DNA from: a phage
DNA: 43,897 bases
Strand: one strand, 5' to 3'
Assembly (NCBI GenBank): GCA_026329315.1
Contig: GCA_026329315.1_4342.1
The number at the start of each line of letters is the position of its first letter. The first letter of the stretch is position 1. The translations under genes and the position numbers were made by a program. Positions 11,296-42,499 of this stretch are shown here, piece by piece. Under the pieces are notes generated by a model that saw nothing but the letters and a program-made list of their open reading frames with translations, had not been told where the DNA came from and did not search any database.

Positions 11296-11402
11296 TCTTT
11301 AATCCTTTGGTTAAGAGGTTACTGGTTAAAGGAAATGCGCCAGACGGGAACCACCCGCTTTTCGTGTGCGACACTAGGCGCAAAATTATTCTAGCACACT
11401 AC

Positions 11403-11431
11403 TTGCACACCCCAATATAATAGCGTACTAT
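11403..11431 (+). promoter_or_regulatory. sigma70-like promoter TTGCAC-N17-TACTAT with embedded palindrome ATAGCGTACTAT
   Basis: Member of conserved class-2 motif TTGCACACCCCAATATAATAG-N-GTACTATTCA; 42 nt upstream of cassette start. Confidence 0.5.
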
Positions 11432-11473
11432 TCACTTACACCAACGATGTTATCTCAAATCAGGAGTTATGTT

Positions 11474-11665
11474 ATGACCGGTATCACTATGTTCTTCTTA
11501 ATTATTTTTGTAGCCGTTTATTTTATCCCGTTTTTGGTGGCACATATGCGTAACCATAAAGCAAAGCTGGCGATATTCATGGCTAACTTATTTCTCGGGT
11601 GGATTCTGTTGCCGTGGGTATTCATTTTAATCTGGGCTTGCAACTCGAACGTGAAAGAGAAGTAG
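11474..11665 (+). CDS. small two-TM membrane protein, superinfection-immunity (Imm)-like
   Basis: AGGAG RBS; two hydrophobic helices; motif NLFLGWILLPWVFILIWA. Confidence 0.45.
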   Translation: MTGITMFFLIIFVAVYFIPFLVAHMRNHKAKLAIFMANLFLGWILLPWVFILIWACNSNVKEK

Positions 11666-11703
11666 GCTACTATAAGACAAATCCTAAACACGAGGAAGTA
11701 AGC

Positions 11704-12834
11704 ATGGCCCAGAAGAAAATAACCGACGAGCAATTACAGGAAGAATTGAACGCCGGGATGAAGAATATCGATATCGCCCGTAAATACGGAATCTCAGACC
11801 GCGTTATCCGAATCCGTAAAGCGAAGCTGGCTAAGAAAGGCGTAGGCCACGGGCGCGACGTTAGTCACCTTGTACCAGACGGTTACAAGATTAAAGGAAC
11901 GTCGTCCCTGGTGGACGAGTTCGGCAACACTAAGTTGCAATGGGTTAAGACCGACGCTGATGCCGAACGTCAGGTTGAATTGATGAAAGCCGTAATAGAG
12001 GGCATGAAGTCAGAGATTACGCCCGTTGCGCCTGTTAAACCGGCACGAGCCAAACGTGACGATAAACTACTCAATCTTTACACGGTATCTGATTTCCATC
12101 TCGGTATGTTAGCCTGGGCTGACGAGAGCGGCGACGACTGGGATATGAAAATCGCGGAGGACTTATTCTCTCGTTGGTTTGATGCTGCGTTTCAGAAAGC
12201 ACCGGATGCAGGTACGGGGGTTATTAATCTTCTTGGCGACTTAGCTCACTTCGATAGTCTTGACGCCGTTACACCGGCGAGTGGTCATGTCCTTGACGCC
12301 GACACGCGTTACCAGAAACTTGTCCGCTACATGATTCGCATGGTCCGCCGTGTTGTTGATATGGCTCTGGTTAAGCATAAAACTGTTCGCTTGCTTATAG
12401 TTCAGGGGAACCACGACGAATCCGGGATGATTTGGCTGGCGGAGATGTTCAGTACGCTGTACGACAATGAGCCGCGCGTGTTCGTCGATACGTCGCCGGA
12501 TGTTTACAAGATGGTGCAACACGGCAAAACGACGCTGTTCTTCCATCACGGGCATAAAGCACGATTCGACGCTATCGAACCGGTTATGATTGCCAAGTTC
12601 CGTAAAGCGTTCGGCGAGAGTGTTTACAGCTACGCCCACGTAGGCCATCTGCACCACCAGAAGATTGTAGAAAGCCGTAACATGATTGTTGAGCAACACC
12701 GCACCTTAGCGGCTAAAGACGCCTACGCCTCTCGCGGCGGATGGATGTCGGGCTGCAGTGCAAATGTAATTACTTATAGCGCCGAATATGGCGAGGTCGC
12801 ACGTTTAACTATTTCACCGGAGATGCTGGGATGA
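11704..12834 (+). CDS. HTH-fused calcineurin-like metallophosphoesterase
   Basis: N-terminal HTH (NIDIARKYGISDRVIRIRKAKL); phosphoesterase motifs SDFHLG, GDLAHFD, QGNHDESG, HHGH, GHLHH. Confidence 0.65.
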   Translation: MAQKKITDEQLQEELNAGMKNIDIARKYGISDRVIRIRKAKLAKKGVGHGRDVSHLVPDGYKIKGTSSLVDEFGNTKLQWVKTDADAERQVELMKAVIEGMKSEITPVAPVKPARAKRDDKLLNLYTVSDFHLGMLAWADESGDDWDMKIAEDLFSRWFDAAFQKAPDAGTGVINLLGDLAHFDSLDAVTPASGHVLDADTRYQKLVRYMIRMVRRVVDMALVKHKTVRLLIVQGNHDESGMIWLAEMFSTLYDNEPRVFVDTSPDVYKMVQHGKTTLFFHHGHKARFDAIEPVMIAKFRKAFGESVYSYAHVGHLHHQKIVESRNMIVEQHRTLAAKDAYASRGGWMSGCSANVITYSAEYGEVARLTISPEMLG

Positions 12835-13319
12835 AAGATATTGTAATTTTCGATTTAGACGGGACATTGGCCGACGGTACCCATCGCTTACACCTGTTAC
12901 CAAAAGATAACTACGGAGAAACGTGGGCGTGGAAGCCATTTAACATGGCCTGCAAAGATGACGCTCCGATATACGACAATATCCATTTGTGTAGCGTACT
13001 GTGGCATTCCGGACTTACTATAATTATCCTTACCGGGCGAAGTGATGACGCTGAGGAGGAGACTCGCGAATGGTTACGAGAGAATAACGTTAGGTTTGAC
13101 ACGCTAATCATGCGCAGCAAACACGACAACAGAAAAGACATCGTAATTAAAGAAGAGGTGTTGCGTGCTTTCGGACTGGAAAGAATCTTGTGTGCGTTCG
13201 ACGACTCTCCAGCGGTAATAAAGCATTTCCGTGACCTCGGCATAACCGCACACGCAGTTACCGAATACGACTGTAACGGGAACTCTACACACTTAAAACC
13301 ACACGGGAGCGATAAATAA
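12831..13319 (+). CDS. HAD-superfamily phosphatase (polynucleotide 3'-phosphatase / nucleotidase-like)
   Basis: DLDGTL motif at N-terminus, ILTGR and FDDS motifs; ATGA overlap with upstream gene. Confidence 0.6.
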   Translation: MKDIVIFDLDGTLADGTHRLHLLPKDNYGETWAWKPFNMACKDDAPIYDNIHLCSVLWHSGLTIIILTGRSDDAEEETREWLRENNVRFDTLIMRSKHDNRKDIVIKEEVLRAFGLERILCAFDDSPAVIKHFRDLGITAHAVTEYDCNGNSTHLKPHGSDK

Positions 13320-13874
13320 TGGCTAAGGTAATTATTCTTAATGGCCCTGCGGGTTGCGGGAAAGACACGCTTGCTATGGCGCTGGTAGAAATGGGCTTTG
13401 CGAAAGGAACTACCAGTTTCAAGAATCCAATGTTCAATATTGCTTTGGCAGCGTTAGGCCAGGATGCTTACCACGAATTTCTCGACGGCTACGACGACCG
13501 GGCGCGGAAAGAAAAACCCGAGGGTTTTTCTTAATGGGTTGTCCCGCCGCCGGTTAATGATTGCCATTTCTGAGCAATTCATTAAACCGGTATTCGGCGA
13601 TGATTATTTCGGTAAGTATCTTGCTGAAAACTTGCCTGACGGCGACGAAGTTTTTGTAGTGTCCGATGGTGGATTCGCCAGTGAAGTTGCCCCTATCGTC
13701 GCCGCGGGGCATGACGTGCGAATCGTCCGCCTCCATCGTGACGGCTATACGTTCATCTGCGATAGCCGTGGCTATCTGTACGATGTTAGTGGTGTAAAAG
13801 ATTACGACACCTACATCATACCGGGTGACGTTAAATCGAACGTTATAGACATTGCTTTAAAATTAGGTTTGTAA
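13319..13874 (+). CDS. deoxynucleoside monophosphate kinase (T4 gp1-like), interrupted by a +1 frame change at T5 run 13525-13529
   Basis: P-loop GPAGCGKDT in frame A (13319-13534); RRLM and kinase C-terminal region in frame B (to 13874). Confidence 0.55.
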
Positions 13875-13880
13875 GAAAAA

Positions 13881-13910
13881 GGCCCCGAAAGGGGCCTTAG
13901 TTTTATGCGT
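13881..13910. terminator. bidirectional rho-independent terminator (GGCCCC-GAAA-GGGGCC)
   Basis: Same stem as the 1785 and 21132 terminators; A-run upstream, TTAGTTTTAT downstream; between convergent genes. Confidence 0.65.
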
Positions 13911-20313: not shown

Positions 20314-20545
20314 GGGTAATCACCTCTGATTTCGTCTTGCCTTTGGAATCGGCGGCGGCGGCCTTAGATTCGTCCTGCTGCTGCCGTTGTGTTTTCTTAG
20401 CTAACTCAGCCTGTGCTTTTTGCTGTTGCTGCGAAACGAGATTAGCGCGGCCTTCGTGCCAGCCGCTGCGGTACTGATAAATGCCGTGTGTGTAAGCCAG
20501 GATGATGAAACATGCTCCTGCTACGACGGTTGCTTTAAGATTCAT
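20159..20545 (-). CDS. i-spanin (Rz-like)
   Basis: N-terminal TM helix, Q/A/K-rich coiled-coil periplasmic region; AAAGGAG RBS. Confidence 0.6.
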   Translation of the reverse strand: MNLKATVVAGACFIILAYTHGIYQYRSGWHEGRANLVSQQQQKAQAELAKKTQRQQQDESKAAAADSKGKTKSEVITREVVKYIKTPGRSGCTFDPERVQLKSRAVANANSITGYDDDAASVQTGSAK

Positions 20546-20796
20546 GTTTCTCCTTTCTCGATAAGTAAAGCCCCGCCTTAAAGCGGGGCGCTAGTCCTTA
20601 TCATTTAAACATAGAAACGGCGTAATCTCAGTAAACCAGTTACTTTTTACACAAGCAATAGAGTATGGCCCTTCCGAACGCGTCAGCGTAACTACACTCA
20701 GGACTTACGTCCCGCTCCGTTACCTGCCCGCGCCGCGGTCGCTTGTTCATACTTCACAAGCTCAGGTGGAGCTTATCATATTTTTAGTGAAAAGTC

Positions 20797-20812
20797 AACT
20801 ATTCGAATAGTT
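20797..20812. repeat. perfect 16-bp palindrome AACTATTCGAATAGTT
   Basis: Read directly; half-sites match the promoter-embedded palindrome but in everted arrangement. Confidence 0.7.
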
Positions 20813-20864
20813 TATTCCAACATTTACAATTGAGCGGAATAACTGGAATAAGTAAATAAATAGT

Positions 20865-20893
20865 TTGCACACCCCAATATAATAGGGTACTAT
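20865..20893 (+). promoter_or_regulatory. sigma70-like promoter TTGCAC-N17-TACTAT with palindrome ATAGGGTACTAT
   Basis: Near-identical to the 11403 promoter; precedes + strand gene at 20921. Confidence 0.5.
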
Positions 20894-20920
20894 TCAGTTA
20901 ACTTAAGCAGGAGGTGAAAA

Positions 20921-21124
20921 ATGTATGCAATTTGCGAAGTAGTTCAAGAGTTCGATGAAGAGTTCGACGGTGACTTGTGCCGTGTTAAAAAGGTTCTGCA
21001 GGTTTTCCCTGACGCAATGTCTGCTTACAAGGCATTAGATGTATTTGAACCTGGAAGATACGGGGATTATGACACTGTTCTGAGGGTCGTCCACGAGCAG
21101 GATTTAAACACAAGATTCCGTTGA
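20921..21124 (+). CDS. small acidic protein (67 aa), opposite-strand moron
   Basis: AGGAGG RBS, own promoter and terminator, inserted between head genes. Confidence 0.55.
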   Translation: MYAICEVVQEFDEEFDGDLCRVKKVLQVFPDAMSAYKALDVFEPGRYGDYDTVLRVVHEQDLNTRFR

Positions 21125-21131
21125 AAACTAA

Positions 21132-21155
21132 GGCCCCTTAATGGGGCCTTTTATC
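21132..21155. terminator. bidirectional rho-independent terminator (GGCCCC-TTAAT-GGGGCC)
   Basis: GC stem followed by TTTTATC on + strand and TTAGTTTTC on - strand. Confidence 0.6.
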
Positions 21156-21615
21156 ATTCGGGCTTAGTGACCTTCGCAGCTTTACTGACAGCCTCTACAC
21201 CATCAGCATCGGTAACTTTAACGAAGTATTCACCAACTGCATTAACCGTCAGAGACAAGGCCTCTTCCGGGGCGTTTACCACTTCCTTACCGTCTTTGTA
21301 CCAGGTCAGAGCATACGGTGCTTTACCCGCCTTAACTTCGACAGTGATAGTTGCGCTGCCATCTGTAAGTTCAGTGTCTTTCGGTTGCACAGAGAAATAC
21401 ACGTCACCAGCGTCCGCCAGATACGGAATTTCATAAAGCATACCAGCGGCAGAGAGTGCGATACCTGTCTTGTCTGCAAACGGCGTATCGTCTACTGGTG
21501 TACCGAGTACACTTTCATCTTCAATAAACACCACGTTCTCGCCAGAGCCAGACACGCGGGCGTACTGGACTACGCGACGCGACGGTACATCAGTTACTTT
21601 GAAAAAGCCCATCAT
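21154..21615 (-). CDS. Ig-like domain protein (possible head decoration)
   Basis: C-terminal motif APYALTWYKDGKEV resembles bacterial Ig-like domain; paralogous in motif to 17585-17935. Confidence 0.4.
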   Translation of the reverse strand: MMGFFKVTDVPSRRVVQYARVSGSGENVVFIEDESVLGTPVDDTPFADKTGIALSAAGMLYEIPYLADAGDVYFSVQPKDTELTDGSATITVEVKAGKAPYALTWYKDGKEVVNAPEEALSLTVNAVGEYFVKVTDADGVEAVSKAAKVTKPE

Positions 21616-22691
21616 TATTCCCCTTTCAGATAATCAGCAACACGTTTATCGAGTTCCGCCATCTGCTTAAGCGTGAGCGGATTCCCGAAACCATCTACAG
21701 ATATTACGCGAAACTCTTCCGGCGATATACCGCTGTTACGGAAAATCTTACCTCGCACCGGGCCGAGGGCCTGGTCCTGAAACCACGCCGGTTGTTGTTT
21801 AAGGAACTCGTAGTAAGTGGTGTCTGCGCTTACCTGAGTACCGCCGTCCGCACCCTTAGCCGCACGTTTTGCGCCTTTATCAAGGAAGTCGAACTCTGAA
21901 CTGATTACCGGTGCAGTGGTACTTCGGCAATTAGGATGGGCTGGTGGCATCGGACCTTTACCGATTTCCCACGTCATTCCGTCTCTGGCCCTGCAAATCG
22001 TGCTGGTACGGCTGTCCAAAGTTGACACCCACTCATATTTCTCGATGATGTCGTCGTTCTGGCGGTACGTCTCGTTACGGGCCTCGTTGGATACGTGGGA
22101 CAGCGCGGTGCGGATTACCGTAGTCGCGTTACGTTCTGAGATGTCGGCTAGTCCACCAGCGCCAACAACATTCTTAACAATCTGCCGTGTGGTTTGACCT
22201 TGCACAAAGCCCATCTTAACTCCAGTTACAAGACGTGCTACTTCCGTTTCGCCCCATCCAGACATCAGCTTGGTGAAATCAACGGGCTTGTCGCTCAATG
22301 ATAATGGTTGAAACTCGGCAGCGGCCCATACCTGCTCAGCGGTAGGCGTAACAAATTCCGCGTCTACGTTGGCGGTCAGTGTCTTTACGTTCCACTCAGC
22401 CTCATACGCCGCCAGTTCCTTAAGGTCTTCTGTCAGCTTTGTCTGCCAGTCGCCCGTAAGCCCCACCAGTGCTTCTTCAAGGTCGCGTAACAGTTTATTC
22501 AGTCGCGCGGTGCTACGCCCGTCGTCACCGAATAACAGCACCTGCCGTTTTATTTCGTCCCGCATCTCCTGAATGAACGGTGCTAGGTCTTTCACTTCAC
22601 CAGATGCGGTGCGTTGCAGCCATATCTGATGGCTGATTAGGGATGTAAGTAAGCTCATAGATAAACCCTGTGGCGCTAAAGTTAATAGCAT
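21615..22691 (-). CDS. head morphogenesis protein (Mu F / SPP1 gp7-like)
   Basis: 358 aa ORF directly downstream of portal gene. Confidence 0.45.
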   Translation of the reverse strand: MLLTLAPQGLSMSLLTSLISHQIWLQRTASGEVKDLAPFIQEMRDEIKRQVLLFGDDGRSTARLNKLLRDLEEALVGLTGDWQTKLTEDLKELAAYEAEWNVKTLTANVDAEFVTPTAEQVWAAAEFQPLSLSDKPVDFTKLMSGWGETEVARLVTGVKMGFVQGQTTRQIVKNVVGAGGLADISERNATTVIRTALSHVSNEARNETYRQNDDIIEKYEWVSTLDSRTSTICRARDGMTWEIGKGPMPPAHPNCRSTTAPVISSEFDFLDKGAKRAAKGADGGTQVSADTTYYEFLKQQPAWFQDQALGPVRGKIFRNSGISPEEFRVISVDGFGNPLTLKQMAELDKRVADYLKGE

Positions 22692-22727
22692 ACTATAAGA
22701 AAGCCCCTTTCGGGGCTATAGGTGAAC

Positions 22728-35827: not shown

Positions 35828-35858
35828 GTCAATTACTCCTTAGTCAGTTGATGTGTGA

Positions 35859-35887
35859 ATAGTACCATATTAATTATTTTAGAAAAA
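35859..35887 (-). promoter_or_regulatory. candidate promoter of the XRE regulator, -10 TACTAT inside imperfect palindrome ATAGTACCATAT
   Basis: -10 present but -35 weak (TTTTTC). Confidence 0.35.
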
Positions 35888-35892
35888 GCCCA

Positions 35893-35921
35893 TTGACAAG
35901 TGAATAGTTCGCTATTATAGT
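35893..35921 (+). promoter_or_regulatory. strong sigma70 promoter TTGACA-N17-TATAGT with palindrome ATAGTTCGCTAT in spacer
   Basis: Consensus -35, 17-bp spacer, 5/6 -10; 33 nt upstream of first ORF. Confidence 0.65.
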
Positions 35922-35953
35922 TAGCCCATACCAAACGAGAGGAGAGAAGCAAA

Positions 35954-38516: not shown

Positions 38517-38716
38517 TTCAAGTAAATGAAATGCCGACTGATAAAGATTTTTTGATGGTATGGCACTGGGATGGGTATCTACACTCGGAATCGTTCACGT
38601 TCTTGAACGGTACCATGATGCGATACTACCCTGTAGAGGATGAGTTCGAACCGGCCAATATGCTTAATTTCGAGAACATAATCCCTATTGCAAAATTTTA
38701 TTTGACACCTGAATAG
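38513..38716 (+). CDS. hypothetical small protein
   Basis: GAGGAGGA RBS, ATGA overlap. Confidence 0.4.
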   Translation: MIQVNEMPTDKDFLMVWHWDGYLHSESFTFLNGTMMRYYPVEDEFEPANMLNFENIIPIAKFYLTPE

Positions 38717-38730
38717 TTAGCTATTATAGT
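38702..38730 (+). promoter_or_regulatory. strong sigma70 promoter TTGACA-N17-TATAGT with palindrome ATAGTTAGCTAT
   Basis: Same architecture as the 35893 promoter; upstream of SSB-like gene. Confidence 0.6.
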
Positions 38731-38798
38731 TCTAATCACTGGCCGGGCAGCTTCCCGGAGTAAACTTTGAAATATAAACTGAAAAGCGAGAAATCACG

Positions 38799-42225: not shown

Positions 42226-42499
42226 GGGCAAAATACAGAAATACGCAAAAGACCGATTCGAGGCCATTGGTGGCCTCGTTCGTAAACTTTCCTACGAAGG
42301 ACGTTCCGGCGCCCCTGACCTGCTGGTAATTCTCCCCGGCGGCGTCATCTGGTTCGTCGAGATAAAGAAAGACGAAAGCACGAAGCCGGATCCACACCAG
42401 TTACGGGAGCACGAGCGGATGCGTAAGCGTGGTGCTAATGTTTTTGTCGTTGGTTCGTTTAAACAGGTTGACGCCCTAATAGCGAACTATTATAGTTAG
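42212..42499 (+). CDS. VRR-NUC domain nuclease
   Basis: GAPDLL ... VEIK motif; GAGGGG RBS. Confidence 0.6.
   Translation: MSTPEGKIQKYAKDRFEAIGGLVRKLSYEGRSGAPDLLVILPGGVIWFVEIKKDESTKPDPHQLREHERMRKRGANVFVVGSFKQVDALIANYYS
42468..42496 (+). promoter_or_regulatory. sigma70 promoter TTGACG-N17-TATAGT with palindrome ATAGCGAACTAT
   Basis: Same architecture as the 35893 and 38702 promoters; lies in 3' end of VRR-NUC gene. Confidence 0.55.

Follow-up and report, generated by a model that had tools for sequence, protein, structure and literature searches.

Two described systems of phage accessory genes come closest to the locus considered here: the morons of lambdoid phages, of which HK97 gene 15 is an example (Cumby, Davidson and Maxwell 2012, PMC3594210), and the promoter-early stem-loop (PeSL) cassettes of T4-like phages (Arbiol et al. 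2010, PMC2839356; PMC4122927). The locus lies in a stretch of phage DNA of 43,897 nucleotides (nt) (contig GCA_026329315.1_4342.1 of GenBank assembly GCA_026329315.1), hereafter the window. It consists of a small gene at 20921–21124 on the plus strand, which encodes an acidic protein of 67 amino acids (aa) and is preceded by a promoter-like motif and followed by a terminator hairpin. An initial annotation, made from the sequence alone, had described it as a single gene on the opposite strand among head genes, and all of its neighbors do lie on the minus strand.

The genome is that of a 44-kb siphovirus of the subfamily Guernseyvirinae, a Kagunavirus. Positions 20400–21700 match 194 phage records, mostly of Escherichia and Salmonella siphoviruses of this subfamily, and the closest relatives are the Kagunavirus phages phiEc3 and K-01 and the BASEL phages Bas70–76, with 94–96% identity over that region. 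Following the annotation of Bas76, the minus-strand order of genes is terminase, portal, MuF-like head morphogenesis protein and Hoc-like decoration protein, then, beyond the plus-strand cassette, Rz/Rz1 spanins, scaffold and major capsid. The cassette site falls between the Hoc-like gene and a 306-nt ultraconserved element, after which come the genes for spanins, scaffold and capsid. Kagunaviruses have been described among the virulent small siphoviruses (PMC11990801), the study of fBC-Eco01 reported no lysogeny-associated genes (PMC9825357), and neither an integrase nor a repressor is listed in the annotation of Bas76.

Like a moron, the cassette is a single extra gene between two late structural genes, present in some close relatives and not in others. 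Its G+C content deviates from that of its surroundings, it has a putative promoter of its own and a factor-independent terminator, and it has spread horizontally among unrelated phages. Classical morons, by contrast, are known from temperate phages, whose repressed prophages express them to the benefit of the lysogen, whereas Kagunaviruses are described as virulent. The terminator of the cassette, moreover, appears to belong to the phage backbone, and its promoter belongs to a family spread over the genome, some members of which precede genes that are not morons. The cassette is a moron in its architecture, but not by the original criterion of expression from a prophage.

The likeness to PeSL cassettes lies in a repeated sigma-70-like promoter and a stem-loop that bracket non-essential open reading frames (ORFs) of unknown function, in insertions, deletions and replacements between close relatives that map exactly to these motifs, and in the occurrence of the same cargo at different motif-bounded sites. 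The window contains four copies of the promoter and three related hairpins, and both elements bound two insertion sites in 38 relatives: the cassette site, here called slot A, and slot B, at the junction of the MuF-like and portal genes. The two systems differ in that this genome is a 44-kb siphovirus instead of a T4-like myovirus and that its slots lie inside the head module instead of in dedicated hyperplastic regions. No relation between the motifs themselves was recognized, without an alignment of TTGCAC-N17-TACTATTCA to the PeSL consensus. In PeSL cassettes, recombination between the motifs gives rise to the rearrangements and to mini-circles; the signature of such recombination is only indirect here, namely breakpoints at the motifs and cargo found in either slot. 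The encoded protein also resembles small acidic phage inhibitors, such as Ocr, T7 Gp5.9, Gp2, AcrIF9 and AcrIC8, in its size (they span 60–90 aa), negative charge, lack of enzymatic motifs, variable presence and probable independent expression.

The locus is read here as a moron-type accessory cassette of a virulent Kagunavirus, the product of which likely binds and inhibits a host protein; taken as a whole, this reading has about an even chance of being correct. Parts of it are firm, since the anatomy of the cassette, its horizontal mobility, purifying selection on its gene and the lack of structural homology are established by the comparisons below. In the proposed mechanism, a module of promoter and 5′ untranslated region (5′UTR) together with one small ORF would have been dropped in against the late genes, directly upstream of a pre-existing terminator hairpin. 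Host RNA polymerase would transcribe the gene as a monocistronic unit, independently of the late operon, and a phage regulator may modulate the cassette promoter through a shared operator. The 67-aa protein would then bind a host protein stoichiometrically and inhibit it during lytic infection. The features of the cassette are as follows.

20852–20920, plus strand: cassette-specific promoter and 5′UTR segment, found in occupied slots and not in empty ones
20865–20893, plus strand: promoter-like motif with −35 TTGCAC (20865–20870), 17-nt spacer and −10 TACTAT (20888–20893), from a repeat count
20881–20894, no strand assigned: operator-like palindrome AATAG-GGTA-CTATT overlapping the −10 hexamer, from a repeat count
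20909–20914, plus strand: Shine-Dalgarno sequence AGGAGG, read from the sequence
20921–21124, plus strand: coding sequence of the 67-aa acidic protein, member of a small family known only from phages, in which the C-terminal Phe-Arg is invariant, from ORF and translation
21130–21150, no strand assigned: GC-rich hairpin AAGGCCCC-TTAAT-GGGGCCTT, common to the cassette and the convergent Hoc-like gene, from a terminator scan

The Cassette as an Exchangeable Unit

The boundaries of the cassette emerged from 38 related IMG/VR genomes, which were gathered through the Hoc-like protein and anchored on the flanking genes. The flanks of slot A are 87–99% identical among these relatives. In 9 of the 38 the slot is empty, and the first 306 nt of the upstream element, up to position 20851, join the hairpin directly. 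The other 29 carry about 13 types of cargo, and those checked share the promoter and end at the hairpin. Cargo ORFs in occupied slots start about 56–76 nt past position 20851, and the occupied slots examined have a purine-rich ribosome-binding site (RBS), mostly AGGAG-like, after the promoter regardless of cargo. The promoter is absent from empty slots and therefore travels with the cargo. The segment that contains it, with the 5′UTR, measures about 69 nt and has a G+C content of 33%. Alignment with phages K1H and XY2 gave the same picture at the nucleotide level: about 375 nt upstream are conserved as far as the RBS and divergence begins at about the start codon, after which the window and K1H realign at the terminator, while the XY2 sequence ended within the cargo. 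The cargoes of slot A are listed below by number of loci.

8 loci: 173-aa protein with weak beta-clamp-like similarity
3 loci: 67-aa protein
2 loci: N6/N4 DNA methyltransferase (PF01555, 105 bits)
2 loci: 83-aa protein
2 loci: 81-aa protein
2 loci: 94-aa protein, plus one locus with a 106-aa relative
2 loci: 70–75-aa membrane protein
2 loci: 33-aa transmembrane peptide, accompanied in one locus by a 114-aa protein whose N-terminus is lipoprotein-like
2 loci: endonuclease VII-like protein, truncated in one
1 locus: 57-aa protein
2 loci: multi-gene sets that differ from each other

The presence of the gene in related phages, which the initial annotation had proposed to check, is thus variable: the 67-aa gene occupies 3 of the 38 IMG/VR loci and occurs in 20 or so of the 194 GenBank records. 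Judged by this turnover between conserved flanks, slot A is a recombination hotspot that carries exchangeable accessory cassettes. The methyltransferase is a bona fide counter-restriction gene. The endonuclease VII-like cargo (slot A of L034 and L044; positions 326–865 of L009) matches phrog_1035 with an E-value of 2.5e-33 and, if it is a homing endonuclease, could drive gene conversion and turnover at the hotspot. A further small cargo was found in K1H (L003, GU196278), where an unannotated 33-aa transmembrane peptide (MMVAISFVLLVNLGLFVWAVSGVEDADSGNGEL) at about 2524–2625 on the plus strand occupies the same slot with the same promoter and RBS. Peptides of this type are also carried by L029 and L040, and in L040 the 114-aa protein with the lipoprotein-like N-terminus follows.

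Putative Promoter, Operator-Like Palindrome, and Terminator

The signals for expression of the gene had been described as a strong RBS, a class-2 promoter 28 nt upstream and a GC-rich bidirectional terminator. The first of these is plainly present, with AGGAGG at 20909–20914, 6 nt before the ATG. The promoter proved to be a real repeated motif that ends 27 nt before the ATG, but one with only a moderate match to sigma-70 promoters. TTGCAC-N17-TACTATTCA occurs without mismatch at four sites of the window, 11403 and 20865 on the plus strand and 30846 and 32241 on the minus strand, compared with 0.00 expected from 100 shuffles. Every copy stands about 25–45 nt 5′ of a strong RBS and an ORF. A 27-nt version of the motif has three copies in the window at three or fewer mismatches, and across 44 instances from the window and the 38 relatives the consensus is nearly invariant over ATAATAGGGTACTATTCA. 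The spacing of 17 nt is ideal, and an A/T-rich stretch lies upstream. The hexamer TATAAT also occurs inside the spacer, at 20878–20883. A pairing of −35 TTGCAC with this TATAAT was rejected because the spacer would be just 7 nt, and TTGCAC-17-TACTAT was kept.

A palindrome overlaps the −10 hexamer, and its wider form, GAATAG-N4-CTATTC, occurs at seven sites in the window when one mismatch is allowed, versus 0.07 expected. These sites include the class-2 promoters as well as strong TTGACA-N17-TATAGT promoters at 35893 and 38702. The latter belong to a strong sigma-70 family of the replication region, on the plus strand at 35848–35922, 38702–38731 and 42468–42497, in which GAATAG-N4-CTATT lies within the spacer. 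In phage fBC-Eco01, the program PHIRE found the motif GAATAG-N4-CTATTC at seven sites, which were labeled as promoters for a phage RNA polymerase (PMC9825357). More likely, the palindrome would be an operator common to several promoter classes and recognized by a phage DNA-binding protein. No RNA polymerase gene is annotated in Bas76, and a shared operator is the more economical reading.

The hairpin forms 8 base pairs, 6 of them G-C, and lies 5 nt past the stop codon of the cassette gene and 3 nt before that of the Hoc-like gene. Its position between convergent genes fits termination in both directions, as had been proposed, but the terminator scan flags the plus strand only. A GGCCCC-loop-GGGGCC hairpin ends every occupied slot shown, and empty slots hold a closely similar hairpin, GCCCC-TTTC-GGGGC. 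Because relatives with an empty slot have this similar hairpin, that of the cassette most plausibly belongs to the phage backbone instead of having arrived with the inserted gene. Hairpins of the GGCCCC/GGGGCC kind are also found at 1781, 13877 and 22698 in the window.

The 67-Residue Protein and Its Family

The coding sequence begins with ATG and specifies a protein of 67 aa (MYAICEVVQEFDEEFDGDL...) and 7.9 kDa. Its description as acidic holds, as it contains 14 Asp/Glu and 8 Lys/Arg residues, for a net charge of −6 and an isoelectric point of 4.50. All family members examined are acidic as well, with net charges of −5 to −9. The G+C content of the ORF is 44.1%, against 50–55% for the neighboring genes, and this low value may be taken as a sign of foreign origin. 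The ORF is annotated in 20 or so relatives, with constant length, and identity ranges from 33 to 98% across phages. Family members are 63–75 aa long, except for two with N-terminal extensions.

The family is small. A word-indexed search of 5.8 billion proteins recovered 18 clusters (at 90% identity) with the single sequence and 41 with a profile, and an exhaustive hidden Markov model (HMM) search of 1.84 billion representatives (at 50% identity) recovered about 19 true members; beyond the family, this HMM search returned only three spurious repeat proteins. In an alignment of 19 members, D16, V22, A35, F66 and R67 are invariant and C5, V7, L26, R55 and V57 are conserved at 90% or more, and all ten residues are invariant in a narrower alignment of 13 members. 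An AlphaFold2 model built from the family alignment has a mean predicted local distance difference test (pLDDT) value of 89.4 and a predicted template modeling (pTM) score of 0.70. It contains strands at residues 2–12 and 17–29, helices at 32–42 and 44–47, and a strand at 53–58, in the order β-β-α-α-β. An independently computed BFVD model of the homologue from phage VSt10 superimposes on it with a template modeling (TM) score of 0.93. The hairpin between the first two strands has a conserved acidic tip, FDEEFDG. No catalytic motif, membrane segment or signal peptide was found in the protein, which is predicted to be a soluble, acidic, single-domain globule.

Searches for relatives of established function gave little. 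Pfam, NCBIfam and PADLOC returned zero matches, and the sole match in PHROGs was phrog_27256 (E 0.001), a family of unknown function. A sequence-profile search of the PDB with the family yielded only noise (E 0.06 or worse), Foldseek found no significant fold match for the model in the PDB, and the fold matches in BFVD were uncharacterized small phage proteins throughout. The view that the gene does not encode a head component accords with these results, as no homology to a structural or assembly protein appeared in Pfam, NCBIfam, PHROGs, PDB or BFVD. Nor was sequence or structural homology detected to characterized anti-defence proteins, whether the DNA mimics Ocr and ArdA or the anti-CRISPR families. 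The family and its fold are uncharacterized, while the genetic phenomenon itself is textbook.

Because no domain or partner can be assigned, and because empty slots mark the gene as dispensable, the ORF might be thought to have no function of its own, being either a passenger, neutral or in decay, or an ORF that arose by chance between promoter and terminator. The pattern of substitution speaks otherwise. Between the window and the copy in vB_EcoM_SHAK7858, which is 85% identical, there are 14 synonymous and 13 non-synonymous differences, and the ratio of non-synonymous to synonymous substitution rates (dN/dS), calculated from these 14 synonymous changes, is 0.19; at the level of sequence comparison this demonstrates purifying selection on the protein. 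Length is held at 63–75 aa and residues are conserved down to 33% identity in at least six phage lineages, the predicted fold is compact and confident, and the RBS is strong. A passenger or chance ORF is disfavored on these grounds and has an almost negligible probability.

Distribution Among Phages

A tblastn search found the protein in 33 of 50,697 phage records. All of Bas70–76 encode it, at 97–98.5% identity, and more distant homologues occupy a range of positions, as listed below.

Jerseyvirus VSt10: at the MuF/portal slot, with a homologue of 61% identity
Klebsiella Jedunavirus Geezett: on the opposite strand, flanked by the MuF-like gene and the portal gene
Cornellvirus Shemara: in a group of small ORFs that follows the endolysin gene
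Klebsiella phage vB_Kpn2-P2: between RNA ligase and primase
Two metagenomic phage contigs: within long runs of small early genes, in one contig together with a KilR-family gene
One metagenomic phage contig: in an opposite-strand island among neck and tail genes
Metagenomic contig L052 (54.5 kb): abutting the MuF gene

The genes beside these homologues are not conserved between contexts. A gene for a protein of 167–175 aa comes after the homologue in both Geezett and vB_Kpn2-P2, and a two-gene module was considered; it was rejected because these following proteins are related neither to one another nor to the slot cargoes of 173 and 179 aa, with 21–24% identity in forced alignment. Searches of 5,426 complete E. 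coli genomes and of 72,556 plasmids found no copy of the 67-aa gene. By this distribution it is a solo, horizontally mobile unit that occurs in six or more phage lineages and is confined to records of phages and contigs of phage size. Since Kagunaviruses are described as virulent and the gene is absent from the 5,426 E. coli genomes, the protein presumably acts during lytic growth.

A role inside the phage itself, as a regulator or chaperone of head morphogenesis acting on MuF or portal, or as a regulator of the phage's own transcription or lysis timing, draws its appeal from position: 4 of the 9 genomic contexts (slot A, VSt10, Geezett and L052) lie near a MuF-like or portal gene, always on the opposite strand. 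The remaining contexts, however, are early or replication clusters far from head genes. Close relatives whose MuF, portal and Hoc genes are at least about 90% identical do without the 67-aa gene, and the protein has no homology to assembly proteins. Junctions of the head module are, furthermore, generic moron sites that also take methyltransferases and membrane proteins. A phage-internal function is therefore improbable.

Candidate Functions

The reading of the cassette as an accessory unit directed at the host leads to two kinds of target, an immune system or a housekeeping protein. Conditional presence (~10%), replacement by methyltransferase or envelope proteins and repeated transfer together form the signature of an arms-race gene, and this signature, combined with a cytoplasmic acidic protein, places a counter-defence inhibitor first and a host-modulating inhibitor second. 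That the 67-aa protein is a counter-defence inhibitor is the best single guess, if a tentative one, and a target in host takeover or host modulation follows closely in likelihood. The initial annotation had proposed anti-defence or host modulation for such genes. The comparisons support a self-contained accessory unit, and the methyltransferase among the alternative cargoes is in keeping with this; nothing, on the other hand, ties this particular protein to anti-defence.

A more specific proposal, which we consider somewhat unlikely, is that the protein is the first of a new family of phage inhibitors, directed at a bacterial immune system or at another host machine. Its fold would be absent from solved structures, the target would be bound by the acidic hairpin tip and the C-terminal Phe-Arg, and the gene would be passed as a ready-to-express cassette among at least six enterobacterial phage lineages. 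If this were true, both promoter-bounded slots would amount to a natural library of counter-defence genes.

Modulation of host physiology or host takeover, through binding of a housekeeping protein such as RNA polymerase, a protease or its adaptor, or a factor of cell division or replication, has precedents in T7 Gp2, Gp0.4 and Gp5.7, phage proteins that bind housekeeping proteins of the host. The 67-aa protein is likewise small, acidic, cytoplasmic and without a catalytic motif. Four lineages place its homologue in arrays of small early genes, one of them with the KilR-family gene and the others beside primase or replication genes. The gene is nevertheless found in only about 10% of nearly identical Kagunaviruses and is freely replaced, which fits conditionally useful arms-race genes better. 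A fold match to the ClpS adaptor family covers 46 residues and scores below the usual level of significance; the order of strands and helices in the ClpS fold probably also differs from that of the model. Host takeover is accordingly judged unlikely as the function.

Several observations weigh against the proposal of an independently transcribed inhibitor of host functions, especially of host defence. The promoter matches the sigma-70 consensus at about 7 of 12 positions (approximately 3 of 6 at −35 and 4 of 6 at −10), below the threshold of a generic scan. A coarse transcriptional time course of phage K1B4 places its superinfection-immunity gene among the late-peaking genes (PMC12645636), and in the window the superinfection-immunity gene follows a promoter of the class-2 type, so that this class may be active early, constitutively or late. 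That time course is the only Kagunavirus transcriptome, and K1B4 appears to be without the 67-aa gene. The acidity of the protein is moderate, with its net charge of −6 spread over 67 aa, and falls well below that seen in classical DNA mimics. Since most of the other slot cargoes likewise have no known function, the slot alone sets no counter-defence theme. Finally, Bas70–76 are reported to be highly sensitive to restriction-modification systems, with variable sensitivity to Old (PMC11990801). Because these phages carry the gene and are yet restriction-sensitive, its product is not an effective broad anti-restriction factor, and its target would not be among the classical restriction-modification systems of the BASEL panel.

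Taken by itself, the gene is one more uncharacterized accessory ORF, and its context is more useful than the gene. Two precisely bounded slots in the head modules of Guernseyvirinae share one promoter and hold at least about 20 different small genes, a list of cargoes that serves as a set of candidates for counter-defence, exclusion or host-modulation functions. The carriers Bas70–76 of the BASEL collection are publicly available, small and genetically tractable, and their defence-sensitivity profiles have already been measured. The family, moreover, occurs in phages of Escherichia, Salmonella and Klebsiella that are considered for therapy.

The Second Slot and the Tail-Module Island

Slot B is empty in the window, where 22692–22727 contains only the hairpin. 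It is occupied in 15 of the 36 relatives that could be examined there, mostly after the same promoter motif. The 173-aa protein, the methyltransferase, the 57-aa protein and a cluster with a 102-aa gene are found in both slots, and cargoes therefore appear to move between slots A and B. Occupied examples of slot B include L015, L018, L019, L021, L025, L026, L032, L035 and L042, with the methyltransferase, the 173-aa protein and a KilA-N protein among their cargoes. L025 has a three-gene set that includes a Vut_1/YhhQ-like transporter and a 244-aa protein, the latter of which might be part of a DNA-modification module.

The same type of promoter opens a second opposite-strand island, at 11403–13906 on the plus strand inside the tail module. 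The first gene of the island, 11474–11665, encodes an Imm_superinfect membrane protein (PF14373, 51 bits against a cutoff of 27.9, E 1.3e-13). It is followed by an ORF at the position of the 'DNA repair exonuclease' of Bas76 and then by smaller ORFs, and the island ends at a GGCCCC/GGGGCC hairpin at 13877–13906. The sharing of a promoter type with this superinfection-immunity homologue raises the possibility that the 67-aa protein acts in competition between phages, by blocking a co-infecting or resident phage or satellite or by excluding superinfection. Several alternative cargoes are, in addition, small membrane proteins or lipoproteins of the kind that typically mediate exclusion. The superinfection-exclusion proteins known from lytic coliphages work at the envelope, however, and the 67-aa protein has neither a transmembrane segment nor a signal peptide and is predicted to be soluble. 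Inter-phage competition is quite improbable as its role, and inhibition of a host protein remains the preferred explanation of the slot A cassette.

Back-to-back with the class-2 promoter at 11403, and directly 5′ of the minus-strand gene for the tail assembly chaperone, lies an int-alpA RNA motif (11320–11384, minus strand; RF02996, 36.6 bits against 35.8), the only Rfam match at the gathering threshold. In position it corresponds to the 306-nt element beside the cassette. The phage also encodes an AlpA/excisionase-like regulator, a homologue of Bas76_0054.

The 306-nt Conserved Element

The element at 20546–20851, between the cassette and the spanin gene, is 95–99% identical in 180 of 181 matching phage records, while the coding genes that adjoin it are 72–94% identical across these records. 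The records include 65 Salmonella phages in which the flanking coding genes are just 72–81% identical to the window. A 36-aa ORF within the element (Bas76_0007) was considered as a divergent partner gene of the cassette and rejected, since it is not conserved as a coding sequence; in several genomes it is frameshifted, truncated or lacks a start codon.

The minus strand of the element contains a putative extended −10 promoter, TTGACT-N17-TG-n-TAAGCT, with TTGACT at 20798–20793, TG at 20778–20777 and TAAGCT at 20775–20770. Its hexamers are almost invariant among 37 sequences, one of which differs at the first T of the −35, while positions in the spacer vary. A GC-rich, well-folding stretch comes next (z −3.1), with a candidate RNA running from about 20763 to 20566, and then a terminator hairpin at 20589–20570, which lies 24 nt before the start codon of the spanin gene. 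A search of the intergenic region against Rfam yielded nothing worth noting at an E-value of 5 or below, and no tRNAs were found there. The element may be a leader or antitermination element of the late operon, or a small RNA (sRNA). A leader of ~195 nt that ends in a terminator before late genes recalls, as an analogy only, the lambda pR′-6S-tR′ arrangement used in antitermination by Q.

Variation in Neighboring Genes and Records

The MuF-like gene is uninterrupted in the window (21615–22691). In several relatives (L013, L036, L039 and L044; also L024, L037 and L041–L043) it is split or is preceded by an extra 700–900 nt. This additional sequence is consistent with the annotation 'minor head protein with inserted intein' in phage fEg-Eco06.

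The SHAK7858 record (L055, OR594183.1) carries a taxonomy line of Autographiviridae, Kayfunavirus, and the name of the phage suggests a myovirus. In gene order the locus agrees with Kagunavirus genomes, to which it is 92% identical, and on this comparison the database taxonomy of the record is probably wrong.

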